Shown one piece after another: positions 18,021-45,802 of a DNA stretch of 64,000 bases. The stretch lies in assembly GCF_050920415.1 (NCBI RefSeq), contig NZ_CP169309.1; one strand, 5' to 3'. How positions within the stretch are numbered: position 1 is the first letter of the stretch; every line of letters begins with the position of its first letter. A model generated the notes under the pieces. The model ran no database searches. It worked only from the letters and a program-made list of their open reading frames with translations, and had not been told where the DNA came from. The position numbers were made by a program, and so were the translations under genes. This DNA is from Escherichia coli (GTDB taxonomy: Bacteria > Pseudomonadota > Gammaproteobacteria > Enterobacterales > Enterobacteriaceae).

Positions 18021-18368
18021 GTGCGATTCGTGGCTAAATCCCCCGCAGAACGCAAAGCCGCGCAGCGCGCTCGGCAGTCCGCCGCCGGTGAGCGCAAAAT
18101 TGAACTGGTGCTGGATAAGCAGGAGCAGGAAATGCTGGAGCGTAACTGTGCCGCCCGTCGCCCTGGTCGTGCGCCGTATGAAATGAGCGAATACATCGCG
18201 TTACTGATCCGCCAGGATGATGCACGCGTGCGCGGGCGTATAAAATCGATCAGCAGAAAACGTTGCGGTAAGTGCGGCGAGAGAGTTCCAGTTAATTCAT
18301 GCCCGTGTAATGGTGACTCGCAATGCTGGGTGACTAAAGGCTGGCATGAAACGAAATTAATAGTGTGA
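18021..18368 (+). CDS. hypothetical Cys-rich protein (start uncertain, GTG 18021 or 18030)
   Basis: ORF ending in palindrome; RKRCGKCGERVPVNSCPCNG cluster. Confidence 0.4.
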   Translation: MRFVAKSPAERKAAQRARQSAAGERKIELVLDKQEQEMLERNCAARRPGRAPYEMSEYIALLIRQDDARVRGRIKSISRKRCGKCGERVPVNSCPCNGDSQCWVTKGWHETKLIV

Positions 18369-18376
18369 CATGTCAC
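18364..18376. repeat. palindrome TGTGACATGTCAC, copy 1
   Basis: Perfect 13-bp palindrome; 42 bp before terminator hairpin. Confidence 0.6.
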
Positions 18377-18417
18377 GAGTAGATTATGCATGATGAATTT
18401 GATGGATTTTGAATACT

Positions 18418-18443
18418 GCCGCCAACTATGGCGGCTTTATTTT
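18418..18443 (+). terminator. rho-independent terminator before packaging operon
   Basis: gccgcc-aactat-ggcggc then TTTATTTT. Confidence 0.65.
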
Positions 18444-18454
18444 GCATGGTACTA

Positions 18455-18469
18455 TTACCACAACGGTAA
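18455..18469. promoter_or_regulatory. operator-like palindrome TTACC ACAAC GGTAA upstream of terS
   Basis: Flanked by partial half-sites (CTATTACCAC repeated). Confidence 0.5.
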
Positions 18470-18486
18470 CTATTACCACGGTGGTT

Positions 18487-19083
18487 ATGATGCCTGCTGA
18501 ACCTAAAACCTATAAACGCAAATCAACGCAATTTAAGCCGCTCACAGCAATGCAGGAGGCTTATTGCCAGTCATACATCAAAACGCCTGAAAACCAGACT
18601 CAGGCAGCGATTAACGCAGGATTCTCCCCAAACACAGCGGCAGTTAAAGCCAGTGTCATGATGCGCGATGAACGCATTCAGAAACGGATTGCCGAGTTGA
18701 TGGAGGAGCGCAACAAACGAATGCGCGTCAGTGCTGATTACGTTCTCATGCGCCTGGTGGAGATCGACCAGATGGACGTGATCGACATCCTCAACGACGA
18801 TGGGAGCCTTAAACCAATCCGTGAGTGGCCGAAAATCTGGCGCACTACGCTTAGTGGCTTTGATCTGTCGTCGACCATCATGAACATGAACGAGGATTCG
18901 ATAGAGACAATCCTCAAAAAAATTAAATGGCCTGACAAGGTGAAGAACCTTGAGCTGATTGGTAAGCATGTTGATGTCAACGCGTTCAAAGAACGTCTGG
19001 ATGTTAATGTGAATGTGACAATTGCTGATCGCATAGCAGCAGCCAGGAAGCGACTCAAAGAACGTCAGGATGGTAATCAGTGA
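18487..19083 (+). CDS. terminase small subunit
   Basis: 198 aa directly upstream of and overlapping large terminase; HTH-like N-terminus. Confidence 0.6.
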   Translation: MMPAEPKTYKRKSTQFKPLTAMQEAYCQSYIKTPENQTQAAINAGFSPNTAAVKASVMMRDERIQKRIAELMEERNKRMRVSADYVLMRLVEIDQMDVIDILNDDGSLKPIREWPKIWRTTLSGFDLSSTIMNMNEDSIETILKKIKWPDKVKNLELIGKHVDVNAFKERLDVNVNVTIADRIAAARKRLKERQDGNQ

Positions 19084-20555
19084 CAGATACAGCGTTATCT
19101 CCTGAAGAGCAGTTGATCGAGGATATTGCAGGGTTCACTCACGATCCGCTTGGCTATGCCCTCTATGCGTTCCCGTGGGGGGAAGAAGGGACTGAACTGG
19201 CACATGCTACCGGCCCACGTCAGTGGCAGGCTGATGCGTTCCGAGAGATACGTGATCACCTGCAGAATCCAGCGACGCGCTATCAGCCGCTTATGCTGGC
19301 ACGCGCTTCTGGTCACGGTATTGGTAAATCCGCATTCATCTCAATGCTGATCAACTGGGGCATGTCCACTTGCGAGGATTGTAAGGTCGTGGTGACCGCC
19401 AACACCGACAACCAGCTACGAACGAAGACCTGGCCGGAAATTATCAAGTGGTCGAACCTTGCTATCACGAAAGACTGGTTTACCTGTACCGCTACCGCGA
19501 TGTACAGCAATGATCCTGGGCACGACAAGCGGTGGCGAGCTGACGCAATCCCCTGGTCTGAGCACAACACTGAGGCATTCGCCGGACTACACAACGAGCG
19601 CAAACGCATCATCGTGGTATTCGATGAAGCGTCGAACATTGCGGATCTGGTGTGGGAAGTTGCTGAGGGTGCGCTTACGGACGAAGACACTGAGATTATC
19701 TGGGTGGCGTTCGGAAACCCTACACGTAACACCGGGCGTTTCCGCGAATGTTTCCGCAAATATAAACACCGCTGGAAAACTGCGCAGATTGACAGCCGGA
19801 CGGTGGAAGGCACTAACAAACAGCAGTTGCAGAAATGGGTTGATGACTACGGGGAAGACAGCGACTTCGTTAAAATCCGTGTGCGCGGCATATTCCCGGA
19901 TGCATCTGAATTGCAGTTTATCCCTACCGGACTTACTGACGAGGCAATGAAACGGGTGGTAACCGCTGCGCAGGTTGCACATGCTCCGGTGATAATCGGC
20001 GTTGACCCGGCATACTCCGGCGTTGATGACGCTGTGATATACCTGCGGCAGGGGCTGCATAGTAAGGTGCTGTGGACCGGCAACAAGACCACTGATGATC
20101 TGATTATGGCGAAGCGTATCGCTGACTTTGAAGACCAGTATCAGGCTGACGCGGTGTTCATCGACTTCGGTTACGGTACCGGGCTGAAGTCAATCGGTGA
20201 CGGTTGGGGGCGCACATGGCAACTTGTTCCGTTCGGTGGCGCGTCTACTGACCCGCAGATGCTCAACAAGCGTGGGGAGATGTTCAACTCATGCAAGACA
20301 TGGCTGAGGCTGGGCGGCATGCTGGATGACCAGGAAACAGCGGACGACCTGTCGGCGGCAGAGTACAAAGTTCGAGTGGACGGTAAAATCGTTATCGAAC
20401 CGAAGGAAGATATCAAGGAGCGGCTTGGGCGTTCGCCGGGTAAAGGCGATGCGCTACTGCTGACGTTTGCGTTCCCTGTGTCTAAGCGTCTGCGAATTCC
20501 CGGGCAGCAGAACCAGCAAGGCAAGGCCATTACAGATTACGATCCCTATGCTTAA
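19080..20555 (+). CDS. terminase large subunit
   Basis: 491 aa; ATPase then nuclease domain arrangement, position after terS. Confidence 0.8.
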   Translation: MTDTALSPEEQLIEDIAGFTHDPLGYALYAFPWGEEGTELAHATGPRQWQADAFREIRDHLQNPATRYQPLMLARASGHGIGKSAFISMLINWGMSTCEDCKVVVTANTDNQLRTKTWPEIIKWSNLAITKDWFTCTATAMYSNDPGHDKRWRADAIPWSEHNTEAFAGLHNERKRIIVVFDEASNIADLVWEVAEGALTDEDTEIIWVAFGNPTRNTGRFRECFRKYKHRWKTAQIDSRTVEGTNKQQLQKWVDDYGEDSDFVKIRVRGIFPDASELQFIPTGLTDEAMKRVVTAAQVAHAPVIIGVDPAYSGVDDAVIYLRQGLHSKVLWTGNKTTDDLIMAKRIADFEDQYQADAVFIDFGYGTGLKSIGDGWGRTWQLVPFGGASTDPQMLNKRGEMFNSCKTWLRLGGMLDDQETADDLSAAEYKVRVDGKIVIEPKEDIKERLGRSPGKGDALLLTFAFPVSKRLRIPGQQNQQGKAITDYDPYA

Positions 20556-20605
20556 TCCGTTAGCGGGGATAATGACGGAGATATCCTCTGGTGAGGATAA
20601 AACAA

Positions 20606-20629
20606 AGCCAGCTCATCGGCTGGCTGTTT
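20606..20629 (+). terminator. terminator after terminase
   Basis: agccagc-tcatcg-gctggct hairpin, short T-run. Confidence 0.5.
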
Positions 20630-20641
20630 GTGACATGTCAC
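20629..20641. repeat. palindrome TGTGACATGTCAC, copy 2
   Basis: Perfect 13-bp palindrome abutting terminator. Confidence 0.6.
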
Positions 20642-20645
20642 GGTG

Positions 20646-21017
20646 TTATTGCTCGCTTAACTTCTGCTTCAGCAAGTAACCTTCAAGCATCCAGATTTTG
20701 TTTACAGCATTCTGCCGGGCAATCTTCCGACCAATTTCCGCATCAAAGTTTTCCGGGCTTGCACAGGCGCTCTCTCCGGTGACGGTGAAGCCATTGCGCA
20801 GCACCAGAACGCAGAACGTCAGCAGAGAAAGTGATTCGTGCGGCTGGTAGTTTACCTCTCCGCCAGTATGTTTCGCTTTTATGGCTACGCCAAAGATACC
20901 ATCTTCTGCTGTGAAATATGCCTCCTGAGCAATAATACTCTCGATATGGTCTGGCGTAACGCGCGGCGCGGCTAAACCTTTAGCCTGAATTTCAGATTCA
21001 ATGTCTTTGTCACTCAT
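20646..21017 (-). CDS. hypothetical protein (opposite-strand moron between terminase and tRNA)
   Basis: 123 aa MSDKDIESEIQAKGLAAPRVTPDHI...; family not recognised. Confidence 0.5.
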   Translation of the reverse strand: MSDKDIESEIQAKGLAAPRVTPDHIESIIAQEAYFTAEDGIFGVAIKAKHTGGEVNYQPHESLSLLTFCVLVLRNGFTVTGESACASPENFDAEIGRKIARQNAVNKIWMLEGYLLKQKLSEQ

Positions 21018-21032
21018 AGTCTAATCTCACCT

Positions 21033-21060
21033 TAAAAAAATGCCCGGCGAACCGGGCGAA
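21033..21060 (-). terminator. terminator for tRNA transcript
   Basis: minus-strand cgcccgg-ttcg-ccgggc hairpin then TTTTTTT. Confidence 0.55.
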
Positions 21061-21220
21061 CTGGAAGCAATGAGTTATGCCTTCCGTGGCTGTACTGGTT
21101 TACAGCATGAAGCCATCGCAATGGCGTCCTGCTGTAAAAAGGGCGGTGATAGTCCTTCAAGGGAAACCATCACCGCCAAGCCCCTGGAACTTCTGGCATC
21201 ACGGTCCTTAGGCGTGATTC

Positions 21221-21297
21221 TGGCGTGGCATGCAGGATTCGAACCTGCGACCGACCGCTTAGAAGGCGGTTGCTCTGTCCAACTGAGCTAATGCCAC
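21221..21297 (-). tRNA. tRNA-Arg (anticodon UCU)
   Basis: Minus-strand cloverleaf: acceptor GTGGCAT/ATGCCAC, anticodon loop CUUCUAA, T-arm GGTTCGAATCC, 3' CCA. Confidence 0.85.
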
Positions 21298-21619
21298 AAC
21301 GCTGAGAGCACTTAGCCTGTTAAGGCGCCACACTTTGTCGCGGCTCCATAAATGCTCTCATCGTTGCACCCTCGTCTCTTCCGAGGCGTCACACCGAATC
21401 GCCGGGATGGTGAATCCCCGTGCGCGGAATAAAACCGCTCGACTTGCACATTCCGGCTACCTGGTTCGTTTGCCCGAGCAAGGGAGGGTGCCCATTAAAC
21501 GTATCCAGACCGCTATCGGCGCATGTGCCATACGCCGTACTGCTCAAAATAAAATCTCACTCCACCTGTTCAATTTAACGACAAGCCAGTCAGGTTAATA
21601 ACAGGAATGCACTCTCTGC

Positions 21620-21634
21620 TTACCTGAAAGGTAA
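21620..21634. promoter_or_regulatory. operator-like palindrome TTACC TGAAA GGTAA ahead of virion operon
   Basis: ~90 bp upstream of ORF 21725. Confidence 0.5.
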
Positions 21635-21724
21635 TAATTCGTGCGTTAAATGTCAACTGTCTACGATAAATAAATCATATGTGGTTAAATTGGTAATAAT
21701 TTAATTGCGTACGGAGTCATTGAT

Positions 21725-21931
21725 ATGTGCATGGGTAGCTCACCATCAGTGCCTGCAACACCAGAAGTTCAGGCAGCACCACAGGAGCAGGATGCCGCCG
21801 TTGTTGATGCCCGCGACGAAGAAACACGTCGCCGTCGCGCTGCTGCTGGTCGTAGTTCTACGCTGCTTACCGGTTCTCAGGGTGACACATCAACCGCTAA
21901 TACCAGCGGTAAAACGCTGCTTGGTCAGTAA
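21725..21931 (+). CDS. small protein preceding portal
   Basis: 68 aa; GGAG RBS with same ccggagtcattga leader as portal. Confidence 0.4.
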   Translation: MCMGSSPSVPATPEVQAAPQEQDAAVVDARDEETRRRRAAAGRSSTLLTGSQGDTSTANTSGKTLLGQ

Positions 21932-21945
21932 CCGGAGTCATTGAA

Positions 21946-23625
21946 ATGGCGGAAACAACTAAAGAGCGATTGAACAAACAGTTCGCACAACTTGAAAGCG
22001 AGCGTCAGTCGTTCGAGCCGCACTGGCGCGAGTTGAGTGATTACATCAACCCGCGTGGTTCCCGCTTTCTGACTTCTGAGGTCAACCGTAACGATCGACG
22101 CAATACACGCATTATTGATTCGACCGGGACTATGGCGGCGCGCACTCTCGCCAGCGGCATGATGTCAGGCATCACAAGCCCCGCGCGTCCGTGGTTTCGC
22201 CTGGCTACGCCAGATCCTGAAATGATGGATTATGGCCCTGTTAAGTTGTGGCTTGAGGCGGTGCAGAACCGCATGAACGATATGTTCAATAAGTCGAATC
22301 TCTATCAGTCGCTGCCGCAGTTATACGGAAGCCTCGGCACATACAGCACTGGTGCAATGGCGGTACTGGAGGATGACGATGACATCATTCGCACAATGCC
22401 ATTCCCGATAGGCAGTTACTACCTGGCTAACTCACCTCGTGGCAGTGTGGACACCTGTTTTCGCAAGTTCTCTATGACTGTTCGTCAGCTTGTTCAGGAG
22501 TTCGGGCTAAATAACGTCAGCGAATCCGTAAAAAGCATGTGGGAAAGCGGCACCTACGAGAAGTGGATTGAAGTGATGCATTCGGTTTACCCGAACATTG
22601 ACCGCGATACATCGAAGCTGGATAGCAAGAACAAGCCATTCAAATCGGTTTATTACGAGGTTGGCGGTGATAACGACAAGTTGTTGCGTGAGTCAGGATT
22701 CGATGAGTTTCCAATTATGGCTCCGCGCTGGGAAGTTAACGGCGAAGATGTTTATGGATCATCATGCCCGGGTATGCTGGCGCTTGGACCTGTTAAGGCA
22801 TTGCAGCTTCTCCAGAAGCGCAAGTCGCAGTTGATTGATAAAGCCACCAATCCGCCGATGATTGCTCCGACTTCCCTCAAGAATCAGCGCGCCTCCCTTC
22901 TTCCTGGCGACATCACGTATATCGATCAGATTACTGGTCAGGATGGTTTCAGGCCTGCTTATCTGGTTAACCCCAGTACAGCAGATCTGGTGGCAGACAT
23001 TCAGGACACTCGTCAAATCATTAACAGTGCCTACTTTGTCGATCTGTTCATGATGTTGCAGAACATCAATACCCGTTCGATGCCTGTTGAAGCGGTGATC
23101 GAAATGAAAGAAGAAAAACTTCTGATGTTGGGGCCGGTTCTGGAGCGTCTGAACGACGAATGTCTTAATCCTCTCATTGACCGCGCTTTCTCGATGATGG
23201 TGCGTAAAAACATGCTGCCGCCCCCGCCTGACGCGATGGAAGGTATGCCCCTGAAGGTCGAATACATTTCCGTCATGGCTCAGGCGCAGAAGTCTATCGG
23301 CCTGTCCAGTCTGGCGTCTACGGTCAACTTCATTGGTCAACTTGCGCAAGCGAAACCAGAAGCTCTCGACAAACTCAACGTTGATCAGGCAATCGATGCA
23401 TTCGCTGATATGTCCGGAGTGTCTCCAACCGTCATTGTTCCGCAGGAACAGGTTGAGCAGGCTCGCCAGCAACGGGCACAGCAACAACAGCAGCAACAAA
23501 TGATGGAGATGGGGATGGCGGCGGCACAGGGTGCCAAGACGCTAAGCGAAGCTAAAACTTCGGATCCGAGTGTTTTGTCAGCTATGGCGAATGCAGTTAG
23601 TGGTCAGGGTGGGCAATCACAATGA
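21946..23625 (+). CDS. portal (head-to-tail connector), T7 gp8-like
   Basis: 559 aa; C-terminal QQQ...MEMGMAAAQG tail resembles T7 gp8. Confidence 0.75.
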   Translation: MAETTKERLNKQFAQLESERQSFEPHWRELSDYINPRGSRFLTSEVNRNDRRNTRIIDSTGTMAARTLASGMMSGITSPARPWFRLATPDPEMMDYGPVKLWLEAVQNRMNDMFNKSNLYQSLPQLYGSLGTYSTGAMAVLEDDDDIIRTMPFPIGSYYLANSPRGSVDTCFRKFSMTVRQLVQEFGLNNVSESVKSMWESGTYEKWIEVMHSVYPNIDRDTSKLDSKNKPFKSVYYEVGGDNDKLLRESGFDEFPIMAPRWEVNGEDVYGSSCPGMLALGPVKALQLLQKRKSQLIDKATNPPMIAPTSLKNQRASLLPGDITYIDQITGQDGFRPAYLVNPSTADLVADIQDTRQIINSAYFVDLFMMLQNINTRSMPVEAVIEMKEEKLLMLGPVLERLNDECLNPLIDRAFSMMVRKNMLPPPPDAMEGMPLKVEYISVMAQAQKSIGLSSLASTVNFIGQLAQAKPEALDKLNVDQAIDAFADMSGVSPTVIVPQEQVEQARQQRAQQQQQQQMMEMGMAAAQGAKTLSEAKTSDPSVLSAMANAVSGQGGQSQ

Positions 23626-23918
23626 CAGATTACGAAGACGATCAACTGAAAGAAGAAAACGCCCGTAAGCAACGTGACATGGCACAACGTGAAATTGATG
23701 ACATTCGCTTTGTCATGAGCAGTGAACAGGGGCGTCGCGTTGTCTGGTCTGTGCTGGAGAAAGGCCGGGTGTTTTCCGCTATCTCTCCGATGGATGCTAT
23801 GGCAATGGCATTTAATGAGGGGCAACGCAATCTGGCGCTGGAACTGTTTCAGCGCGTTATGGCGCATTGCCCTGAACAGTATTTGAAGATGGCCAAAGAG
23901 GCCAGTGAACAGGAGTGA
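23622..23918 (+). CDS. hypothetical protein
   Basis: 98 aa, overlaps portal stop by 4 bp. Confidence 0.45.
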   Translation: MTDYEDDQLKEENARKQRDMAQREIDDIRFVMSSEQGRRVVWSVLEKGRVFSAISPMDAMAMAFNEGQRNLALELFQRVMAHCPEQYLKMAKEASEQE

Positions 23919-23920
23919 TC

Positions 23921-24616
23921 ATGAATTTATTTGAGCGTTTGCTGTATCGCCGTCTTTGCAATGAGCAACCAGTCGATGGTGGAGCAGCTCCGGCTGCGTC
24001 AGAACCGTCAGCGCCTGCAGGTGATAACCCTGCTCCAGTTGGTGATCCATCACAATCGGAAGGTGATAAGCCACAACCTGTTGCTGATGGCGATAAACCT
24101 GCTGATGACAAAAAGCCTGAAAACGATAAGCAGGATGAAAAAAAGGACGGCGATAAACCAGAGGGTGCGCCTGAGAAGTACGAGTTTCAGGCTGCCGAAG
24201 GCGTAGAGCTGGATACAGAAGCGTTGAAGGAATTCGAGCCGGTGGCGCGAGAACTTAACCTGACCAACGAGCAAGCGCAAAAGCTGGTTGATGCTTATCC
24301 GAAGATTCTGGCAGGTGTGCAGCAGCGCCAGGCAGAAGCCTGGCAGAAAACAACCGAGCAGTGGGCTGCTGATGTAAAAGCTGACAAAGAAATCGGTGGC
24401 GACAAGTTGATTTCTAACCTTAGCGCCGCACAGCGTGCGCTTGACCAGTTCGGGACACCTGAACTCAAAGAATATCTGAACACCACCGGGCTGGGTAATC
24501 ACCCTGATCTGGTCAAAACGTTCGTGAAAATCGGAAAGGCGATGTCTGAAGATGGCATGGTCACCGGTGGTAATGAAGGCCAGCGTAGTGCGGCCGAAGT
24601 GCTCTATGGCAAATAA
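23921..24616 (+). CDS. scaffolding protein
   Basis: Highly acidic, low complexity, between portal and capsid; AGGAG RBS. Confidence 0.6.
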   Translation: MNLFERLLYRRLCNEQPVDGGAAPAASEPSAPAGDNPAPVGDPSQSEGDKPQPVADGDKPADDKKPENDKQDEKKDGDKPEGAPEKYEFQAAEGVELDTEALKEFEPVARELNLTNEQAQKLVDAYPKILAGVQQRQAEAWQKTTEQWAADVKADKEIGGDKLISNLSAAQRALDQFGTPELKEYLNTTGLGNHPDLVKTFVKIGKAMSEDGMVTGGNEGQRSAAEVLYGK

Positions 24617-24630
24617 GAGAGGAAATGACA

Positions 24631-25617
24631 ATGGCTGTTAAAGGCTTAACTGCGCTAACGCTGGCTGACTGGGGTAAGCGCGTCGATCCAAACGGGAAAG
24701 TCGATAAGATTATCGAGCTTCTCGGTCAAACTAACCCGATCCTTCAGGATATGCCTTTTGTCGAAGGGAACCTTCCTACCGGACACCGAACCACCATTCG
24801 TTCTGGTTTACCTTCAGCTACCTGGCGTTTGCTGAACTATGGCGTACAGCCAAGCAAATCAACCACAGTGCAGGTAACCGATTCCGTTGGCATGCTGGAA
24901 ACCTATGCTGAAGTCGATAAGTCACTGGCTGATCTGAACGGCAATACCGCCGAATTCCGCCTGTCTGAAGACCGCGCATTTATTGAAGCGATGAATCAGC
25001 AGATGGCGCAGACGCTGTTTTATGGTGATTCCAGCGTTAACCCTCAGCAGTTTATGGGACTGTCCTCCCGCTATTCCAGCCTGTCTGCGGGTAATGCTCA
25101 GAACATCATTGATGCTGGTGGCACGGGTACAGATAACACCTCAATCTGGTTAGTGGTGTGGGGCGAAAACACCGTGCATGGCATCTTCCCGAAAGGGCAG
25201 AAGGCTGGCATCCAGATGGAAGATAAAGGCCAGGTGACACTGGAAGATGCTAATGGCGGCAAGTACGAAGGCTATCGCACCCATTATAAATGGGATAACG
25301 GACTTGCTCTGCGTGACTGGCGTTATGTTGTTCGCATTGCAAACATCGATGTCAGCAATCTTTCAGAACCTTCCTCTGCCGCAAATATTGCGAAGTTGAT
25401 GGTTAAAGCACTGCATCGCATTCCAAACCGTGGCATGGGCCGCCCGGTGTTCTACATGAACCGCACTGTAGGCCAGGCTCTTGATCTGCAATCTCTGGAG
25501 AAAACATCTCTGGCGATCAGCGTAAAAGAGACAGAAGGCGAGTGGTGGACTTCATTCCGTGGTGTACCAATCCGTGAAACTGATGCGCTTCTGGAAACAG
25601 AAGCCCGCGTGGTGTAA
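24631..25617 (+). CDS. major capsid protein
   Basis: ~330 aa, position after scaffold; start 24625 or 24631. Confidence 0.75.
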   Translation: MAVKGLTALTLADWGKRVDPNGKVDKIIELLGQTNPILQDMPFVEGNLPTGHRTTIRSGLPSATWRLLNYGVQPSKSTTVQVTDSVGMLETYAEVDKSLADLNGNTAEFRLSEDRAFIEAMNQQMAQTLFYGDSSVNPQQFMGLSSRYSSLSAGNAQNIIDAGGTGTDNTSIWLVVWGENTVHGIFPKGQKAGIQMEDKGQVTLEDANGGKYEGYRTHYKWDNGLALRDWRYVVRIANIDVSNLSEPSSAANIAKLMVKALHRIPNRGMGRPVFYMNRTVGQALDLQSLEKTSLAISVKETEGEWWTSFRGVPIRETDALLETEARVV

Positions 25618-25633
25618 CGCCTGTTATTAACCT

Positions 25634-25653
25634 GTGGGTCGTAACAGACCCAC
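25634..25653 (+). terminator. stable hairpin after capsid gene (no T-tract)
   Basis: gtgggtc-gtaaca-gacccac; position analogous to T7 T-phi. Confidence 0.35.
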
Positions 25654-25668
25654 TAATGGAGAAAGAAG

Positions 25669-26106
25669 ATGATCACCGACAAACTGTTGATGTTCTCCGA
25701 AGCTCAGGCGGTTACGAATACCGCGGCTTCTACTGACGTAATCGATCTCGGTCCAATTGACGGAAAACGTCGTGATATCGGCGTGGGTTACCCGCTTGAG
25801 TTTTGGGCGCTGGTTAACACAGCCGCCGCGGCAAGCGGTGATGCAACTGTAAACATCCAGTTGCAGACGAGTGAGAATAACAGCTCATGGACCACTATTT
25901 ATGATAGTGGCGCACTGGCAAAGACCGCCCTGACAGCAGGTAAACGAGTTGTTTCTGCAAAGGTGCCTGCCGGTGTTCAGCGATATCTGCGTGTTAACTA
26001 CTCCGTCGCAACTGGCCCACTAACGGCTGGCGAATTCACTGCTGGTATCAGTCTTGATGTTGATGCCAATACGCCGTATCCGATCCGCTCAAAAGTAACT
26101 GGTTAA
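25669..26106 (+). CDS. hypothetical virion protein (decoration-like)
   Basis: 145 aa, Gly/Ala/Thr-rich, in capsid gene block. Confidence 0.45.
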   Translation: MITDKLLMFSEAQAVTNTAASTDVIDLGPIDGKRRDIGVGYPLEFWALVNTAAAASGDATVNIQLQTSENNSSWTTIYDSGALAKTALTAGKRVVSAKVPAGVQRYLRVNYSVATGPLTAGEFTAGISLDVDANTPYPIRSKVTG

Positions 26107-26107
26107 G

Positions 26108-26452
26108 GTGATATCGATGTCAGGTGAGAAACCAAGATACCGCGTTATGCGCCTCTCTCATATCCATAACACTCTGTGGCCGGAGGGGGCAGAAATCGAA
26201 TACGAAGGTGAGCCTGGTAGCGCACTGGAACCTGTTAACGATGCAGCCAGACAGGCAAAAGCAAAGGTAGCAGGAAAGGTGACTATGGCAGCAACCAGCA
26301 CCAAAATCATCAACGATGTGTCAGATGATGGTGAACTGGATAAGCTCCGTGAAGAGTACGAATTGCTCTTTAACGAGGAGCCACACCATAACGCCAAAGC
26401 CGAAACGCTCCGCGAGAAGATCGCAGATAAGCGTAAAGAACTGGGCGTGTAA
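26108..26452 (+). CDS. hypothetical protein
   Basis: 114 aa in structural block. Confidence 0.4.
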   Translation: MISMSGEKPRYRVMRLSHIHNTLWPEGAEIEYEGEPGSALEPVNDAARQAKAKVAGKVTMAATSTKIINDVSDDGELDKLREEYELLFNEEPHHNAKAETLREKIADKRKELGV

Positions 26453-26502
26453 GCCTCGCGAATCAGACAAGGGGCTTCGGCCCCTTTATTGCAGGAGTGT
26501 AT

Positions 26503-26826
26503 ATGGAACTCGTAAACCTCAAAACCGGCACTGACAGCTACCAGGATGAGAGCGGAGAAACCAGAACTCGCGATGAATACCCGTGGGGGCTGTGCATCAC
26601 TCTTAATAACGACACATTGAATAAGCTGAAGGCACAACCTCAGGGCGTCGGAACAGAAGTGATGATAACTGCAAAGGCTGTTATTCGAGGCCTGTCTGCC
26701 AGAGAAACTGACGATGGTGTTAATCGCAGCGCCGATCTGCAGATCACTGATATGGCGATCGCTCCTGTTTCCAGGGATGTAGAAAAATCAGCGGCTGAAA
26801 CCCTGTACGGCAATGGGGGTGAGTAA
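26503..26826 (+). CDS. hypothetical protein
   Basis: ~107 aa; stop overlaps next start. Confidence 0.4.
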   Translation: MELVNLKTGTDSYQDESGETRTRDEYPWGLCITLNNDTLNKLKAQPQGVGTEVMITAKAVIRGLSARETDDGVNRSADLQITDMAIAPVSRDVEKSAAETLYGNGGE

Positions 26827-30911: not shown

Positions 30912-33424
30912 TGCCAGTCGTACCAACAGTATCCGGACGTCAGGTTGAGAGCCGTGGAGTTCAGTCAGCAGGCTTGCAGACGTTTTCTCAGCCAGGTATT
31001 GGTGATGCTTTTGTTCGGGCAGGGGCAGAGACAATTGATGTTTTTGGTCAGGCAAAACAGCGTGCCAATATCGCTCTGGCTCAGGAGGCATCCCTTAAAC
31101 TCAGTCAGACAGGCAGCGATCTGCTGAATAACCCTGAAACAGGTTTGCTTAACCTGAAAGGGAAAAATGCTATTGGAAAAGGTCAGGAGTATACGCAGCA
31201 GTTTGATGCTCAGATCGAACAACTGGCTATGTCGCTGCCGGATGAACAGGCTCGTAATGCTTTCATGCAGCAGGCGCAGCAGCAGCGTATTCAGTTCACT
31301 ACGCAGGCCGGGCGGCACGAGATAGGGCAAATAAATGCCTACGAAGAAGGTCAGTTTCAGGCGACGCTGCTGAACAATGGTAAAAATGCCGCAGCATTGT
31401 ATGGCGACAATGCCGCATACGTATTGGCTAATAAGCAAACTTTCCAGCAAATTGAGGAGTACGGTGCTGCACATGGCTGGAGCGACGAGCAAATACAGGC
31501 CAAGAAAATCGAGTTTAAAGAGAAGGTTGCTGATGCAGCATTGTCCCAGTGGTCGGCAAACAATGCGATCTCATTTATCCAAAGTAATGGCGAGTTAAGC
31601 GATACTGCTGCTGGAGCTCGCCGTGCTGTAGCAGATAGTGACTCTTCCGAGCGTGCCCGTGGCATACGCAACAATAACCCAGGAAATCTCGAATACAGCA
31701 AAACTAATCCGTGGGTAGGCCAGACCGGTGATGATGGTCGATTTGCTAAATTCGAAACACCTGAACACGGGATTCGTGCATTAGGGCGGAACCTGATGTC
31801 GTATCAGAGGCAGGGTATTGATACCGTCAGCGAGATAATTAATCGCTGGGCACCGCCTACTGATAAAAATGACACTATGTCGTATATCAAAGCAGTGTGC
31901 GAACAACTTGGCGTTTCTGCTGATGAGCCTCTCGATGCATCTAATCCTGATACCCTGAAGGCGCTTTGTGCAGCCATTATCCATCATGAGAACGGTAGCC
32001 AGCCATACAGTGATCAGCAGTTAACTGCTGGTGTCAGTGCAGCACTTGGTTTATCAACAATTCCAACCAACACCAAACGCTATACCGGTAATGCAGCATT
32101 CGATGCGGCATCTCCTGAGGCGCAGGCAAGTTTTATGCGACAGGCGGATCAACTGCGTCGGCAGCAGCAGGCTGAATATAAAACGATGATTGACAGCCAG
32201 GTTCGCGATGCGACAGCTGCGTATATGCGTGGCGTTGAATTTCCTAACCCACCTGGTGAGGCTGATTTTATTGCAGCTTATGGAGTCAGAGAAGGAAAAC
32301 TGCGATATACCGAGTTCAGAAATACGCAAATCGCCGGACAGTATATAGGCTCTTTCCGCAACATGCCGACAAGCAGCATTACAGCATATGTTGAGCAATT
32401 ACGCCCGGATACTGGTGAGACAGGGGAGGGTTATGCGGCACGAGCCGCTCTTTATGACAACGTTGTGTCGGCTGCAAGTCAGGTGATAAAGCAGCGACAG
32501 GCTGATCCTGTACAGTTCTCTCTTGCCGCCGGACAGGCAAAGCCTATCGACATGAGCAATAAGGATAACTTTGGACAGAGCGTTGCCTTGCGTGCTGCTC
32601 AGGTCAGTGACCTTGCTAAGTCATATGGCACTCCACTGACGTTCTTTTCCAAAGACGAGGCCAATCAGATCGGTGTTTTCTTTCGTGATGCGCCCGTTTC
32701 CCAACAGGCAGCATATCTCGATACCATCAGGCAGAGCACTGGTGGTGGGCAGGTGTATATGTCAGCACTACAGCAGATCAGTGCCAACGCTCCATCTGCT
32801 GCCGTTGCCGGGATACTGATGGATAAGCCAGGTGGTATTTTGGCAGAAAAAAACTGGTTTAATCCGGATGTTTCCGTGTCTCCTGAAACCGCTGCGCAGA
32901 CAATTCTTGCTGGCGCGGCGGCTCGTAAAGGTACTGATGACGCGAAAGGTATTCCGATGCCTAAAGATGCTGATCTCCGCCTTGAGTTTTCTGACATGGT
33001 GAAGGATGCATTTGCTGGTGATGCTCAGGGGGCATCAATGGCATACGAGATCGCAAAGGACTATTACGCTGGTGTGATGGCGAAAAAAGGCGTGGTATCA
33101 GGCGAAATTGACAATGATATCTGGAAACAGGCTGTTAACGTAGCTACAGGTGGCGTGCATGACTATAACGGAATGGGGAATGTTCTTTTGCCGTGGGGAA
33201 TGTCTGCAGAGCAATTCGATAAGCAGGTTAATCAGGCTTGGAATGAACAAGTTGTTGGCACAGGGATAAAAACACCGCCTGGTCAGTATGGTTTGCAAAG
33301 TTACGGCGATAGTCAGTACCTGGTGAAACTTGGTACTGGTTATCTGCTAAAAGATGATGGTTCTCCCGTTGTTCTTGATCTGACACAGAAGCGTCAGAGA
33401 TTCTCCGGAGATATTCCGCAATGA
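30911..33424 (+). CDS. internal virion/ejection protein with candidate cell-wall hydrolase motif
   Basis: 837 aa; GIRNNNPGNLEY...GRFAKFETPEHGIRALGRNL segment. Confidence 0.55.
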   Translation: MPVVPTVSGRQVESRGVQSAGLQTFSQPGIGDAFVRAGAETIDVFGQAKQRANIALAQEASLKLSQTGSDLLNNPETGLLNLKGKNAIGKGQEYTQQFDAQIEQLAMSLPDEQARNAFMQQAQQQRIQFTTQAGRHEIGQINAYEEGQFQATLLNNGKNAAALYGDNAAYVLANKQTFQQIEEYGAAHGWSDEQIQAKKIEFKEKVADAALSQWSANNAISFIQSNGELSDTAAGARRAVADSDSSERARGIRNNNPGNLEYSKTNPWVGQTGDDGRFAKFETPEHGIRALGRNLMSYQRQGIDTVSEIINRWAPPTDKNDTMSYIKAVCEQLGVSADEPLDASNPDTLKALCAAIIHHENGSQPYSDQQLTAGVSAALGLSTIPTNTKRYTGNAAFDAASPEAQASFMRQADQLRRQQQAEYKTMIDSQVRDATAAYMRGVEFPNPPGEADFIAAYGVREGKLRYTEFRNTQIAGQYIGSFRNMPTSSITAYVEQLRPDTGETGEGYAARAALYDNVVSAASQVIKQRQADPVQFSLAAGQAKPIDMSNKDNFGQSVALRAAQVSDLAKSYGTPLTFFSKDEANQIGVFFRDAPVSQQAAYLDTIRQSTGGGQVYMSALQQISANAPSAAVAGILMDKPGGILAEKNWFNPDVSVSPETAAQTILAGAAARKGTDDAKGIPMPKDADLRLEFSDMVKDAFAGDAQGASMAYEIAKDYYAGVMAKKGVVSGEIDNDIWKQAVNVATGGVHDYNGMGNVLLPWGMSAEQFDKQVNQAWNEQVVGTGIKTPPGQYGLQSYGDSQYLVKLGTGYLLKDDGSPVVLDLTQKRQRFSGDIPQ

Positions 33425-35223
33425 GTTACTTTGGCCTTAATCCAGTAAACCAGAATCAGCAGCTTGACGAAGCAGCATCAAATCCAGCTGGCTTTAACAG
33501 CGATGTTGGTTTTTTCGACAATGCTGTAGGAGCGGCATTGTCTGGTTTGTACTCCGGGCTGGTGGCAAAGCCAGATCAGTTGCTCTGGGCAGGGATGGAT
33601 AAAATCGTATCCCCGATTGCTCAGTTTGTTAACGAAAACACCTCGCTCAATGACACTTCAGTTTCATACATTGCCGAGCAGAGAAAACTAGCAGAGCAGC
33701 AGGTTAAGCGGCTGACGCCTGATGCCGCGACAACCGGAACCGCCGGGCAGGTTCTTTATGGGTTGTTCGATATGGGCGGGCAGGCTGTTATCGGTACAAC
33801 GCTCGGTGGTCCGGCCGGAGGTGCTGCGGCGGTAACTTCGCTACAGGGTTTTTCTGAGTTTGAACGGCTGACAGCACAGGGTGTTGATTTCAGGACGGCG
33901 CAGGAAGCGGGATTAGTGCAGGGTATTACTGCTGGTGCCGGAACAATGATCCCTATGAGCCTCGGGTTACGTGCTGGTGGTGCGCTGGCGGAAGGTGTGG
34001 CGGCTCAGCTTGCGCGGACGGGTGAAAGTTCAGTGCGACGCGCCGCAGCAACAGCAGTAAGTGCAACGCCAGATATTGCCTATGCCGCAGGTACAAATAT
34101 TGCGTTCGGTATGGCACAGCGTGGGCTTACTGCAAAAACGCTTCGTGATGGTGGCTATAGCGAAATGGCTAACCAGTATGATGTGTTGGATCGACAGGCA
34201 ATTGCTATTGATGCTGTTCTTGGGGTGGCGTTTGGTGGTGTCGGCAGATTTATTAACTCTCGCGGCGAGTCTACAAGCGCACCAAATTTTTCACCAGTTG
34301 ATATTGATGCTGCACTGGCGGCGAATGCCGCTCATCATGCTGAAATTGATATTGCGCCCGGCGTGCCGATCAACGTGCTTTCGCGCAATTCTCACATTCA
34401 GGCTCTGCGAAAAGCTATGTCTGATGTTAGCCAGGGGAGACCTGTAGACGTTGCCAGCATTGTTGAGTCTGCATCTTTCAGTGAAATTCCTGGGCGCAAG
34501 AGTCTGCTGTCTCAGGCAGTTAATGAGGCTCTGTCATCTGTAGATGATGGAGTAACGGCGCGCGCTATAGAAAATCGGTTGCTTGAAGAACAGGCCGCGC
34601 AGCTTTTGCCGCGTGGAGATAGACAGGTTTACCAGTCTGAAATCGCTAATAGCCAACGAATTATTGAAAATCTCACTGAACAGCGTGCACAAATTCTTGC
34701 AGAAGAGCCAACCGGTAGCGGTAAAGCTTTGTCTCGTGCTCGATCAGATAAACAGGCCAGACTTCGTGATATTGATCAACGAATCCGGCAGGCACAAGAA
34801 CGCCTGGAATTTTCCCGTAACGCGTTGGCACCGCACGAGCCTGGAGGTCAGTTTTTTGAAGCTCGAGCAGAACTGGCACGGCGACAGCAGGCAGAAAGTG
34901 AACTTAATGCTCAGGCTGTTTCATTCTATAAAACAGCAGAGGTCAGGACGCCAGACGAAGTAGCTCCTTTTGAGCCCGGTAAGATATTGCAACAGACAGA
35001 ACAAAAAATGATGGCAGATCCGGCAGGAGATATTGATCTGCGTATAGCTGAAGACTCGCTGCTTGAATCACCTGACATGATAATCACCGTGCTGGATGAT
35101 GATGGTAATCCACAATCGCGCAGTGCGCGTGAAGTACTGGATGAAGCTAACAGGGAAAGTGAGCAGGCAATACAGGATTCCAGCCTGTTTGATGTTGCTG
35201 TGGCGTGTTTCTTGAGAGGTTAA
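33421..35223 (+). CDS. internal virion/ejection protein
   Basis: 600 aa, Ala/Gly-rich, overlaps flanking genes. Confidence 0.55.
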   Translation: MSYFGLNPVNQNQQLDEAASNPAGFNSDVGFFDNAVGAALSGLYSGLVAKPDQLLWAGMDKIVSPIAQFVNENTSLNDTSVSYIAEQRKLAEQQVKRLTPDAATTGTAGQVLYGLFDMGGQAVIGTTLGGPAGGAAAVTSLQGFSEFERLTAQGVDFRTAQEAGLVQGITAGAGTMIPMSLGLRAGGALAEGVAAQLARTGESSVRRAAATAVSATPDIAYAAGTNIAFGMAQRGLTAKTLRDGGYSEMANQYDVLDRQAIAIDAVLGVAFGGVGRFINSRGESTSAPNFSPVDIDAALAANAAHHAEIDIAPGVPINVLSRNSHIQALRKAMSDVSQGRPVDVASIVESASFSEIPGRKSLLSQAVNEALSSVDDGVTARAIENRLLEEQAAQLLPRGDRQVYQSEIANSQRIIENLTEQRAQILAEEPTGSGKALSRARSDKQARLRDIDQRIRQAQERLEFSRNALAPHEPGGQFFEARAELARRQQAESELNAQAVSFYKTAEVRTPDEVAPFEPGKILQQTEQKMMADPAGDIDLRIAEDSLLESPDMIITVLDDDGNPQSRSAREVLDEANRESEQAIQDSSLFDVAVACFLRG

Positions 35224-35786
35224 ATTAAATGAGACAGGAATGTATACAAGCGGTCCAGCAGGCGGCGCAGCGCACGTTAACGGCGCGAGAAATACAGAAC
35301 ATTGAAGACCGCATTTATCGCAATATGCGCTCCATTGCTCGTGATGACCCTATGTCGTGGCGACAACTTTCCGAGTCAGAGCGGCTGTATCGTGCAGCAC
35401 AATTGGCATCTGAAGAATTACAGCGAGAAGCGGCATTAAAGAAACGTCGTGTGGCTCTCACTATAGCTGCACGTCAGAGATTGGATAAATTTATCAATAG
35501 CTATCAAGGGGCTGATGGGAAACTTGGCGCTCTTAACCGTACTATAGCTTTTAATGCAGACGGTAAATCTAATTTCCTCTCTGTTGAATCCAGAACAAAA
35601 GCCACCCGTGATTATGCATTGAGTCAATTGCAGGAGGCATTCGAAGCAGTTGATCCTCGCTTTTTTGGTCTGTTTGAAGATGAAGCGGGCGTACGTAGAC
35701 TGGCCCCCTGAATCTCCAGACAACCAGTATCACTTAAATAAGTGATAGTCTTAATACTAGTTTTTAGACTAGTCATTGGAGAACAG

Positions 35787-36152
35787 ATGATTGATGTCTT
35801 AGGGCCGGAGAAACGCAGACGGCGTACCACACAGGAAAAGATCGCAATTGTTCAGCAGAGCTTTGAACCGGGGATGACGGTCTCCCTCGTTGCCCGGCAA
35901 CATGGTGTAGCAGCCAGCCAGTTATTTCTCTGGCGTAAGCAATACCAGGAAGGAAGTCTTACTGCTGTCGCCGCCGGAGAACAGGTTGTTCCTGCCTCTG
36001 AACTTGCTGCCGCCATGAAGCAGATTAAAGAACTCCAGCGCCTGCTCGGCAAGAAAACGATGGAAAATGAACTCCTCAAAGAAGCCGTTGAATATGGACG
36101 GGCAAAAAAGTGGATAGCGCACGCGCCCTTATTGCCCGGGGATGGGGAGTAA
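35787..36152 (+). CDS. insC: IS2 transposase OrfA
   Basis: [26 protein letters not shown]... matches recalled InsC. Confidence 0.9.
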
Positions 36153-37015
36153 GCTTAGTCAGCCGTTGTCTCCGGGTGTCGCGTGCGCAGTTGCACGTCA
36201 TTCTCAGACGAACCGATGACTGGATGGATGGCCGCCGCAGTCGTCACACTGATGATACGGATGTGCTTCTCCGTATACACCATGTTATCGGAGAGCTGCC
36301 CACGTATGGTTATCGTCGGGTATGGGCGCTGCTTCGCAGACAGGCAGAACTTGATGGTATGCCTGCGATCAATGCCAAACGTGTTTACCGGATCATGCGC
36401 CAGAATGCGCTGTTGCTTGAGCGAAAACCTGCTGTACCGCCATCGAAACGGGCACATACAGGCAGAGTGGCCGTGAAAGAAAGCAATCAGCGATGGTGCT
36501 CTGACGGGTTCGAGTTCTGCTGTGATAACGGAGAGAGACTGCGTGTCACGTTCGCGCTGGACTGCTGTGATCGTGAGGCACTGCACTGGGCGGTGACTAC
36601 TGGCGGCTTCAACAGTGAAACAGTACAGGACGTCATGCTGGGAGCGGTGGAACGCCGCTTCGGCAACGATCTTCCGTCGTCTCCAGTGGAGTGGCTGACG
36701 GATAATGGTTCATGCTACCGGGCTAATGAAACACGCCAGTTCGCCCGGATGTTGGGACTTGAACCGAAGAACACGGCGGTGCGGAGTCCGGAGAGTAACG
36801 GAATAGCAGAGAGCTTCGTGAAAACGATAAAGCGTGACTACATCAGTATCATGCCCAAACCAGACGGGTTAACGGCAGCAAAGAACCTTGCAGAGGCGTT
36901 CGAGCATTATAACGAATGGCATCCGCATAGTGCGCTGGGTTATCGCTCGCCACGGGAATATCTGCGGCAGCGGGCTTGTAATGGGTTAAGTGATAACAGA
37001 TGTCTGGAAATATAG
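36110..37015 (+). CDS. insD: IS2 transposase OrfB
   Basis: 301-aa ORF, DDE catalytic domain; matches recalled InsD. Confidence 0.9.
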
Positions 37016-39048
37016 GGGCAAATCCAGTACGTGACCTGGTATATGAAATGCGGGGGCAAAATACTGGCAATGCTAAAGCAAGAAAAGGTGCTAAGGCGTG
37101 GAGAGAAGTTACAGAGCTGCTGCGCCGCCGGTTTAATGATGCTGGTGGGGACATTGGCTATCTCGAAAACTGGGGGATCCCTCAACATCATTCTATGGAA
37201 AAGGTTGGGGCGGTATCAAAGGATAAGTGGGTTAGCGATGTTATAGGTAAGCTGGATCGCAAATATTATATCCGAGCCGATGGACAACTGATGAACGATG
37301 CCGAGTTGTCTGCATTTCTTGGAGAGGCTTATAACACGATCGCTACTGGTGGGCTGAATAAGCTTACTGATACCGGAATGCGAATTTCCGGCGCACGTGC
37401 TAACCGTGGTAATGCATCACGACAGATACATTTCAAAGATGCAGATTCCTATCTGCAATATCAGCAACTTTATGGCGATCGCTCTCTATGGGAAATCATG
37501 GTCGGTCACCTGGAAGGTATCAGTAAAGATATTGCACTGGTGGAAACATATGGCCCAAACCCCGATCATGTTTTCCGCTCTCTTCTTGATCAGGTGAAGG
37601 CAGAAACGGCAACAGCTAACCCGAGTAAAACCGGTAAAGTCGAGCGGCTGGCGAACAACACAGAGAATCTGTACAACTTTATTTCCGGAAAGACACAGCC
37701 TGTAGCAAATCCGCACATCGCGCGATGGTCTGACAATATCCGCAACTGGCTGGTTGCCAGCAGACTCGGATCCGCGTTGCTGTCATCGTTCTCTGATCTT
37801 GGAACCATGTATCTGTCTGCGAAGGTGACCAACCTTCCAATGAACCAGTTATTCCGCAACCAGCTTGAAGCTATGGACCCAACGAACCGTACTGAGCTTG
37901 CGCGGGCGCGCCGCGCTGGTCTGGCGATGGAATCTCTACTTGGCAGCGTTAACCGCTGGGCGATGGATAATATGGGGCCGTCAGTGTCTCGTTGGGCTGC
38001 AACGGCGGTAATGCGTGCCAGTGGGCTTACAGCATGGTCAGATGCGCACAAGCGCGCCTATGGCGTAACCATGATGGGAAGCCTGGGAGAAGTAGTGTCA
38101 CGGACACCAGACCTTCGTAGCCTCGATGACTCTGATTTTCGTATCCTGAAAAGCAAAGGGATTACTGACACAGACTGGAGCGTATGGAAGCTGGCGCAAC
38201 AGGAGGACTGGGGGAACGGTAATAATACGATGCTGACACCGGAAAGCATTATGCGTATCCCTGATTCAGCAGTTAAACATCTTGGTGAGCCTGAACGCGT
38301 GAAATTTGAGGCAATGCGTAAACTGCTCGGTGCCGTAACTGAAGAAGTTGATATGGCTGTTATTACACCGGGAGCACGTGAGCAACTGATAACCGGTTCT
38401 GGTATTCAGCGTGGAACATGGAAAGGTGAATTAACGAGAAGTGTTTTCCTGTTTAAATCGTTCCCTATCTCGGTGGTTATGCGTCACTGGTCACGCGCTA
38501 TGGGTATGCCGTCTGCTGGTGGGCGTGCGGCATATATTGCGACGTTTATTGCCAGCACGACCATTCTTGGCGCTTTGTCTCAGCAACTTAACGACCTTGC
38601 GTCTGGTCGTAATCATCGCGAGATGACAGGAGAAGATGCTGCTAAATTTTGGCTTGGTGCTCTACTGAAAGGTGGTGGTCTTGGCCTTTACGGTGACTTT
38701 TTATTGTCAGATCACACTAGGTACGGAAGCGGCGCGCTGGCGTCGATGCTTGGCCCGGTAGCTGGTCTGGTTGATGACGTAGTGAAGATTGCTCAGGGCA
38801 TACCGTTAAATGCTGTGGAAGGGAAGAATGAGCAGACTGGTGGTGATCTGGTTAAGCTGGGGAAGGGGCTGATGCCAGGTGCGAATCTCTGGTACTTGAA
38901 GGCGGCTCTCGATCACATGATCTTTAACCAGATGCAGGAGTATTTTTCACCAGGCTATTTGCGTAAAATGGAGCAACGTTCGAAGAAAGAGTTTAACCAG
39001 ACATACTGGTGGCGACCACAGGATGTCACTCCGCAATAAGGATGAGAA

Positions 39049-39189
39049 ATGATTGCTTTTATTCTTGTTGTGTTTGCGCTTGTTGCACTTGGCGTTATGA
39101 ACCGTAAATGTATCATTGACGATGGCGAATTTGCTGTTGCAGTTATTTTGATATTATCTGGTGTAGCAGGATACATAGGCTTGTCATAA
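39049..39189 (+). CDS. small hydrophobic membrane protein (46 aa)
   Basis: MIAFILVVFALVALGV...; AAGGATGAG RBS; not in ORF track. Confidence 0.3.
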   Translation: MIAFILVVFALVALGVMNRKCIIDDGEFAVAVILILSGVAGYIGLS

Positions 39190-39195
39190 CGTGAG

Positions 39196-39209
39196 TGTGA
39201 CATGTCACA
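39196..39209. repeat. palindrome TGTGACATGTCACA, copy 3
   Basis: Perfect 14-bp palindrome immediately before terminator. Confidence 0.6.
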
Positions 39210-39233
39210 GGCCGCTTTCGCGGCCTTTTCTTT
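39210..39233 (+). terminator. rho-independent terminator after virion-protein operon
   Basis: ggccgc-tttc-gcggcc then TTTTCTTT. Confidence 0.7.
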
Positions 39234-39507
39234 ATGTGGTTTGTTTTCGTAGTTGTTCGGCACAATAGTCGAGATGTGTTTGCAGATCCTGCATAGACAT
39301 CTGTGAGCTGGTGACGTAGTTAATCAGTGCAGTCAGTTCGGCAAGTGGGCCATCGACATTAAATCCATCCTTATCGAGATCCCGGAGTAATTTCATCAAG
39401 TGCGATCCTTCCACCAGTGACCTGACGCCTCCCGGCGTGTGAATCCTTTCGGTAAATCCCTCTTCCAGTGGATAGTGATACTGCTGCATCTTATCTTCTC
39501 CATGCAA
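39232..39507 (-). CDS. hypothetical protein (opposite-strand moron before tail fibre)
   Basis: 91 aa (or 85 from second ATG); family not recognised. Confidence 0.4.
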   Translation of the reverse strand: MHGEDKMQQYHYPLEEGFTERIHTPGGVRSLVEGSHLMKLLRDLDKDGFNVDGPLAELTALINYVTSSQMSMQDLQTHLDYCAEQLRKQTT

Positions 39508-45774: not shown

Positions 45775-45802
45775 CATGGCATTTTTCATGGTACTGATTT
45801 CC

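Follow-up and report, generated by a model that had tools for sequence, protein, structure and literature searches.

A 12-bp palindrome at gene ends of an epsilon15-like Escherichia coli prophage and its linkage to the gene for a putative ribbon-helix-helix regulator

A stretch of 64,000 nucleotides from an Escherichia coli genome (RefSeq assembly GCF_050920415.1, contig NZ_CP169309.1; this whole stretch is called the window below) carries a phiV10/epsilon15-like prophage of the genus Uetakevirus that contains three exact copies of a perfect 12-bp palindrome, GTGACATGTCAC. The palindrome is linked to the gene for a 112-aa protein, which ends within one of the copies, and by comparison of sequences across phage types the gene and its site form a conserved module. 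Given this co-occurrence and the predicted fold of the protein, we hold with moderate confidence that GTGACATGTCAC is the DNA operator of the prophage's own 112-aa protein, which is predicted to combine a ribbon-helix-helix domain with a zinc-ribbon-like segment. A preliminary description of the window had named a site for a late regulator or antiterminator among several options. This is the option that we favour, based on the linkage to the ribbon-helix-helix gene and the placement before terminators, and the reading as a whole is partly supported.

Three copies between stop codons and terminators

A search of the whole window found GTGACATGTCAC at 18365-18376, 20630-20641 and 39197-39208 and nowhere else, and it is the only 12-bp perfect palindrome present more than once. 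A first-order Markov model predicts 0.004 copies in the window, with a probability of about 1e-8 for three or more, so that both the three copies and their departure from chance, as first described, are borne out. The outline of the repeat had been drawn less accurately. A leading T precedes the 12-mer in all three copies, but the resulting 13-mer is not palindromic; the palindrome extends to 14 bp at copy 3 only (TGTGACATGTCACA), and the true unit is the 12-mer. The base 5′ of TGTGAC is G, T and G at copies 1, 2 and 3, respectively, and the flanking G ascribed to all copies was therefore wrong. The features that define the three sites are as follows.

18030..18368, plus strand: regulator gene, 112 aa (mechanical open reading frame (ORF) from 18021), proposed binder of the motif
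18365..18376: copy 1 of GTGACATGTCAC; the ribbon-helix-helix gene stops at TGA, bases 2-4 of this copy (18366-18368)
18418..18445, plus strand: intrinsic terminator at copy 1, hairpin 18418-18435 and T-tract, 41 nt past the motif; closes the early-right operon
20598..20625, minus strand: intrinsic terminator at copy 2, hairpin 20625..20606 with tail TTGTTTT, downstream of copy 2 in moron transcription
20630..20641: copy 2 of GTGACATGTCAC, 4 nt past the minus-strand moron stop and 4 nt ahead of the minus-strand terminator hairpin
20646..21017, minus strand: moron ORF, 123 aa, PHROG 322; occupies the exchangeable slot that ends in copy 2 and the terminator
39049..39189, plus strand: membrane-protein ORF, 46 aa, equivalent of phiV10p21; closes the virion operon and is the last gene before copy 3
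39197..39208: copy 3 of GTGACATGTCAC, 7 nt past the stop of the 46-aa membrane ORF; abuts the terminator hairpin (0 nt)
39209..39236, plus strand: intrinsic terminator at copy 3, hairpin 39209-39226 and T-tract, immediately after the motif

Read on the transcribed strand, all three copies share one layout, in which a stop codon is followed by the motif and then by an intrinsic terminator. The proximity to terminators noted earlier is thus confirmed, with hairpins 41, 4 and 0 nt from the motif at copies 1, 2 and 3. At copy 1, the regulator gene is the last of the early-right operon and has its stop within the motif; the plus-strand terminator comes next, followed by two ATTACC-N5-GGT(A/T)A sites and terS. 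Copy 2 is located after terL, and the minus-strand order there is moron stop (20646-20648), 4 nt, motif, 4 nt, hairpin and TTTGTTTT. For the hairpin at 20606-20625, only the minus strand gives a terminator score. The placement at operon boundaries proposed in the preliminary description is therefore right in general, but copy 2 marks the 3′ end of the minus-strand moron and not that of terL.

A few weaker matches accompany the three copies. The window holds a one-mismatch copy, GTGACATGGCAC, at 23674-23685 within the ORF after the portal gene, which is shared with phiV10 and absent from epsilon15, SPN1S and Tyrion. A fourth match to the relaxed pattern GTGAC-NN-GTCAC, GTGACGGGTCAC (centre GG), lies at 44462-44473 within the predicted holin ORF, where phiV10 has no match; about 0.06 matches to this pattern are expected per window, and this one is probably due to chance. 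Neither the 23674 nor the 44462 match is conserved across the phage group, and we take both as chance. SPN1S (locus L006) carries the one-mismatch copy GTGACATGTCAT at 26722-26733, in which TGA terminates the Rz spanin gene where the lysis operon ends, and the counterpart in the window is a degenerate sequence at 45770-45785.

Conservation of the sites and linkage to the regulator gene

The motif is kept at equivalent sites in related phages, and the preliminary description, which had let its proposal stand or fall with such conservation, holds on this point. The identical 12-mer is found at all three equivalent positions in epsilon15, phiV10, SPN1S and Tyrion, in which the terminase DNA is only 75-82% identical to that of the window; none of these four records annotates the motif. 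At copy 1, the 12-mer stands at the gene end in 77 of 80 IMG/VR loci, which had been retrieved with the upstream protein, and column identity is 1.00 over the 12 bases and about 0.5 from +14 downstream. The copy-3 unit, made up of the motif and a GGCCGC hairpin within 1-3 nt, is present in more than 120 IMG/VR contigs; it is abutted by more than 20 unrelated upstream gene ends, and its hairpin loops vary. In phage TL-2011b this unit follows an ant gene, and copy 2 is missing. The epsilon15-like prophage type is also common, as 669 of 5426 complete E. coli genomes carry the gene and the copy-1 region.

The phiV10 and Tyrion records are split at copy 1. We rejected a physical genome end at this position, as the epsilon15 record is opened elsewhere; the split arises because depositors opened the records directly after the stop codon of the last gene.

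More distant homologues of the 112-aa protein, at 30-60% identity, were surveyed with a hidden Markov model of the family in about 20 distant lineages chosen by availability, giving 29 loci with a homologue. They belong to P2-like, N15-like, Mu-like, Pantoea and Vibrio phages, and the hosts of the phages that carry the module are Enterobacterales, Vibrio and Aeromonas. In many of them GTGAC-NN-GTCAC starts 1 nt before the TGA stop of the gene, with a centre that differs between lineages: AT in Klebsiella and Citrobacter Uetakevirus-like phages, CT in the Pantoea myovirus AH07 (60% identity), GC in the Yersinia P2-like phage 201.16 (45%), TG in the N15-like phages phiKO2, MStein-2023a and PhiR46_1 (about 39%) and AG in Vibrio phage 10N.237 (35%). 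Two Mu-like members (L095, 4349-4360; L109, 3325-3336; P0177) have the gene immediately upstream of gemA and encode the motif as in-frame V-T-G-H within a C-terminal extension, indicating that the site is retained even without use as a stop codon. Other lineages have the motif 31-419 nt downstream of the gene or 3 nt before its own ATG. Two Vibrio-type lineages have two copies, one ahead of holin and the other 23-31 nt upstream of the terS ATG. The motif directly precedes the ribosome-binding site (RBS) of the next gene in N15-like and Vibrio-type phages, and in one locus (L093) it lies between the Shine-Dalgarno sequence and the ATG.

With ten specified bases, and as its own reverse complement, GTGAC-NN-GTCAC is expected about once per 1.05 Mb. 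One batch of 14 loci (79.7 kb) held 13 matches, for which about 0.08 are expected, and gene and site co-occur in at least seven phage lineages, well above chance. Because this linkage persists at about 35% protein identity, the 10-base non-coding pattern and the gene are under joint selection. The comparison also shows the ancestral arrangement, in which the site and the stop codon of the gene overlap (G-TGA-C...), and Uetakeviruses have two extra copies.

Two further observations concern the site in these relatives. In one homologue lineage (L105, ~600-640; L108, ~670-710; L106, 3353-3390), the imperfect 12-mers GTGTCCGGTCAC ... GTGACCGGACAC lie just after the gene and jointly form a long perfect inverted repeat, which may bind a tetramer, fold into a strong RNA hairpin or do both. 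In AH07 (L087), an exact GTGACATGTCAC at 34430-34441 lies inside an annotated Q-like antitermination gene, where it encodes C-V-T-C-H of a Cys motif and is probably a coding coincidence.

Copy 2 forms the fixed 3′ end of a minus-strand expression slot (window 20646-21060; loci L007-L086). The slot runs from tRNA-Arg(TCT) at 21221-21297 through two minus-strand hairpins, a conserved RBS and ATG, a variable ORF and TAA-CACC to the motif and the terminator. At least six unrelated ORFs have been swapped start-to-stop between the conserved RBS (aaGGTGAgat-ATG) and the end made up of TAA-CACC, motif and terminator. The slot is empty in L073, where the half-site GTGACAT alone is left, and holds an 8-codon remnant (MKYEFDGF*) in L016 and L067; where the entire slot has been replaced directly after terL, copy 2 is absent. 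The other (right) boundary consists of a conserved RBS and terminator without the motif, and no integrase is linked to the slot. We rejected an integron-like cassette site (attC) at copy 2, since the core at copy 2 is 12 bp, as opposed to the imperfect inverted repeats of 57-141 bp in attC, and the opposite boundary has no repeat. Cassette swapping needs no site-specific recombination, because the flanks are conserved on both sides and homologous recombination suffices.

Variable sequence also adjoins copy 1. The 41-nt spacer between copy 1 and its terminator (18377-18417) ends in ...DEFDGF*, the leftover of a 70-aa gene; some relatives have this gene intact (L026, 1087-1320), starting 9 nt past the motif (GTGACATGTCAC-gaaggtgtt-ATG). 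The C-terminal peptide of this gene recurs in the remnant ORF at copy 2 of L016. In Klebsiella phage Kp4865-1 (L100, 12709-12760), a near-consensus sigma-70 promoter (TTGACT...TATACT) right after copy 1 is overlapped by the LexA-box-like TACTGT-N8-ACAGTA, which suggests an SOS-controlled moron inserted at the copy-1 junction. Downstream of the copy-1 terminator of the window, the ATTACC-N5-GGT(A/T)A palindromes occupy 18454-18469 and 18472-18487, with further ones at 12325, 13037, 15368 and 15430. They match sites annotated 'repressor' in the epsilon15 record (ATTACC-N5-GGTAAT), and the two between the terminator and terS suggest that the repressor directly controls the packaging operon. They are probably what the preliminary description counted as its first palindrome. 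At the left edge of the phage genes (4484-7504), a 525-aa ORF is followed by a 416-aa ORF, a pair consistent with integration next to guaA, as described for the related phage ZX5 (PMC9782041). The ZX5 paper covers the repressor, anti-repressor and integrase only (PMC9782041).

The predicted protein and comparable protein-DNA systems

The 112-aa protein belongs to the family of epsilon15 gp49 and phiV10p55 (PHROG 536), which is labelled 'transcriptional regulator', and the NCBI pipeline names it 'hypothetical protein'. About 150 representatives at 50% identity make up this small family. PHROG 536 is its sole family assignment, as no match to a curated ribbon-helix-helix family was found in Pfam, even at E ≤ 10, or in NCBIfam. 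A sequence search of the PDB gave nothing usable, and a fold search of BFVD was uninformative. Modelling predicts a basic N-terminal helix, a ribbon-helix-helix domain and a Cys4 zinc-ribbon-like segment. The AlphaFold2 monomer model has a predicted local distance difference test (pLDDT) score of 91, and the predicted strand-helix-helix fold has a modest similarity to ribbon-helix-helix proteins. A dimer modelled with a fusing linker (core pLDDT 80-90, predicted template modelling score 0.69) shows strand in place of coil at residues 22-28 and 160-166. R8 and R13 in the basic N-terminal helix are invariant while the strand is variable, which parallels the invariant half-sites around a variable centre.

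Compared with ribbon-helix-helix regulators such as Arc, Mnt, CopG, MetJ, the ParD/MazE antitoxins and TraM, the phage protein is similarly small, would act at a similarly short symmetric site and has a predicted strand-helix-helix in which the strand forms only in the dimer model. It differs in its extra basic N-terminal helix with invariant residues and in its C-terminal Cys4 zinc-ribbon-like module. Its site lies on a stop codon or 3′ gene end beside terminators, and not in a promoter as in the operators of those regulators. Palindromic operators of ribbon-helix-helix regulators are well known; unusual here are the predicted zinc module, the proposed operator on the stop codon of its regulator and the copies close to terminators. 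Zinc-finger proteins of the DksA/TraR family bind the secondary channel of RNA polymerase, and the profile of the long helix and zinc segment (C-x2-C...C) of the phage protein aligns to two members of this family, TraR and YbiI, with E = 0.04-0.07. This alignment is a weak lead for a possible contact with RNA polymerase.

The resemblance of the palindrome to a CRP half-site pair, remarked upon earlier, goes no further than appearance. The CRP consensus is TGTGA-N6-TCACA, and the motif spacing of 4 rather than 6 bp, as first described, is correct; nothing links the motif to CRP, and we rejected a CRP site. The half-sites are the same as those of the MatP-binding site matS, whose 13-bp consensus is GTGAC[AG]N[TC]GTCAC (PMC3603311, PMC3116907). 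Membership was rejected here also, as all copies of the motif are 12 bp with a 2-bp spacer of any sequence, whereas the matS spacer is one base longer and restricted to R-N-Y, and the two proteins show no sequence homology. An hhalign comparison to a MatP sequence gave a probability of 0.35%, and MatP was absent among the matches of a PDB-sequence profile search with the phage protein. An overlap in the predicted ribbon-helix-helix fold is the sole link between the two, and the phage protein has a zinc module and neither the four-helix bundle nor the coiled coil of MatP. The SlmA-binding sequence, GTGAGTACTCAC (PMC3603311, PMC3116907), is like the motif a 12-bp palindrome with outer GTGA...TCAC at the same spacing. 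Its inner four bases are GTAC as opposed to CATG, and SlmA is a TetR-family protein. By mutagenesis of the SlmA site, each half calls for G, T, A and G at positions 1, 2, 4 and 5 and for a pyrimidine at position 6, the preference at positions 5 and 6 being strong (PMC3020112); the motif half G-T-G-A-C-A has C and A at positions 5 and 6, and an SlmA site was rejected.

A parallel in gene order is lambda Q/QBE, where the regulator gene likewise closes the early-right operon and its DNA site, a terminator and the late genes come after it in turn. As with Q, the phage protein is a predicted zinc-containing DNA binder, and its site is set back about 30-70 bp from the point of termination. The phage differs in having three sites, one of which faces the other strand. 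Membership in the Q/QBE class, whose site is placed between the -35 and -10 elements of a late promoter ahead of a terminator, was rejected, with no Q-family Pfam match and no demonstrable promoter at the site. A sigma-70 promoter with GTGACA as its -35 element was rejected as well, as a -10-like partner is present at copy 1 alone, with a weak 9/12 match, and there is no match at copy 3.

Control of polymerase passage and competing explanations

We propose that a dimer of the 112-aa protein would bind the two GTGAC half-sites, leaving the central two bases free. The protein, as the last product of the early-right operon, may then act on RNA polymerase crossing operon boundaries, a step that we put forward with low confidence. 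Control of polymerase passage is proposed because the gene is last in the early-right operon and the sites are at operon ends, and because other lineages have sites before terS and holin. The direction of the effect is more doubtful than the operator assignment. Our tentative preference is that the protein promotes read-through, that is, terminator-proximal antitermination. An early-made block before late genes would contradict the lytic programme, and the motif precedes just those two clear plus-strand terminators that stand between the early genes and terS-terL and between the virion operon and the tailspike gene; both points favour read-through. In this way early transcription would be coupled to terS-terL, and the virion operon to the tailspike gene. 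To our knowledge, no late-gene regulator has been recognised in epsilon15-like phages, and the literature searched contained neither the 12-mer or its centre variants in a phage context nor a description of the protein.

Several points weigh against this proposal. The pairing of protein and operator rests on co-occurrence and predicted fold, and in 6 of the 29 loci with a homologue GTGAC-NN-GTCAC is absent within about 3 kb. An operator at the 3′ end of its own gene is atypical of ribbon-helix-helix repressors. Copy 2 faces a minus-strand unit, and the plus-strand hairpin there precedes the motif, so that read-through would yield antisense terL RNA. In addition, the late operons of epsilon15 are annotated with their own repressor-controlled promoters, and ATTACC-N5-GGTAA sites are present before terS in the window; read-through is thus not obviously needed. 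Finally, a transcribing polymerase displaces a DNA-bound protein, which in this case is the very factor meant to modify it.

The nearest alternative to read-through keeps the same protein-operator pair and reverses its effect, such that the bound dimer would strengthen operon ends as a roadblock or insulator, keeping polymerase out of convergent units or late genes. Copies 2 and 3 do lie at convergent gene junctions, beside hairpins that score as terminators one way only, the ribbon-helix-helix proteins matched by the fold search are typically repressors, and in N15-like and Vibrio-type phages the site immediately precedes the RBS of the next gene. We nevertheless regard a roadblock as unlikely, since an early-made block before terS and holin contradicts the lytic temporal order and efficient intrinsic terminators are already in place. 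At copy 2, moreover, a polymerase stalled by the bound protein would halt within the DNA that encodes the hairpin, and bound protein and hairpin would therefore not cooperate.

A role at the RNA level appears less likely still. Here, a short hairpin in the 3′ untranslated region (GUGA-CNNG-UCAC) would be bound either by a host factor or by the protein through its arginine-rich N-terminal helix, with consequences for termination, for the stability of the transcript or for how the following gene is translated. This would fit the position of the motif, which is always on the transcribed side upstream of a terminator hairpin and often directly before an RBS, or between Shine-Dalgarno sequence and ATG as in L093. 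The N-terminus ERKAAQRARQ resembles arginine-rich RNA-binding peptides, and the long inverted repeat formed by two imperfect copies in L105 and L108 would fold as a strong hairpin. However, the isolated 12-mer hairpin reaches only -2.7 kcal/mol and is unused in the minimum-energy fold around copy 3, whereas a nut/boxB-type element would have a stable stem-loop recognised by an arginine-rich peptide. The processing site suggested in the preliminary description is a weak option at the RNA level. The half-sites do not covary but are invariant, as would fit a protein that reads specific bases in duplex DNA, and the predicted fold is that of a double-stranded-DNA binder.

We consider it very unlikely that the phage exploits a site for a host protein such as MatP, SlmA or CRP, despite half-sites identical to matS, an SlmA-like length and outer four bases, and a host range of the module phages, namely Enterobacterales, Vibrio and Aeromonas, that is also the range of MatP. 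The spacer of 2 bp compared with 3 bp in matS, the 6 bp needed by CRP and the unmet base preferences of SlmA all contradict it, and a host site would leave unexplained the association of the motif, in unrelated phage types, with a single phage gene and its phasing to the stop codon of that gene. Least likely of all is a recombination or packaging signal, be it a cassette-exchange boundary or a site beside terS-terL that terminase would recognise: at copies 1 and 2 similarity is lost immediately past the motif, unrelated ORFs are exchanged precisely beside copy 2, with the lone half-site in L073, and copies 1 and 2 bracket terS-terL, but the opposite slot boundary is equally conserved without the motif, no recombinase is consistently linked, copy 3 is unrelated to packaging and the gene-site pair is far from the terminase genes in AH07 and phiKO2, which leaves this early suggestion unsupported.

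The operator assignment with control of polymerase passage thus remains our preferred reading. In its broadest form, it describes a widespread and previously undescribed phage module, in which a ribbon-helix-helix and zinc-ribbon factor would be recruited to a matS-like 12-bp palindrome on stop codons, just upstream of intrinsic terminators or RBSs, and would switch polymerase passage at operon boundaries; we regard this extended proposal as speculative and rather improbable as it stands. If true, it would represent DNA-tethered, terminator-proximal (anti)termination distinct from N/nut, Q/QBE, put RNA and RfaH/ops. As a variant reading, the protein may be the phage's equivalent of MatP, either bridging its sites or disturbing host matS/MatP. 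Half-sites so close to those of matS also prompt the question whether there is cross-talk with host proteins that organise the chromosome. A gene-site module common to podo-, myo- and siphoviruses, P2-, Mu- and N15-like phages included, would indicate a shared and so far unstudied control at operon boundaries.

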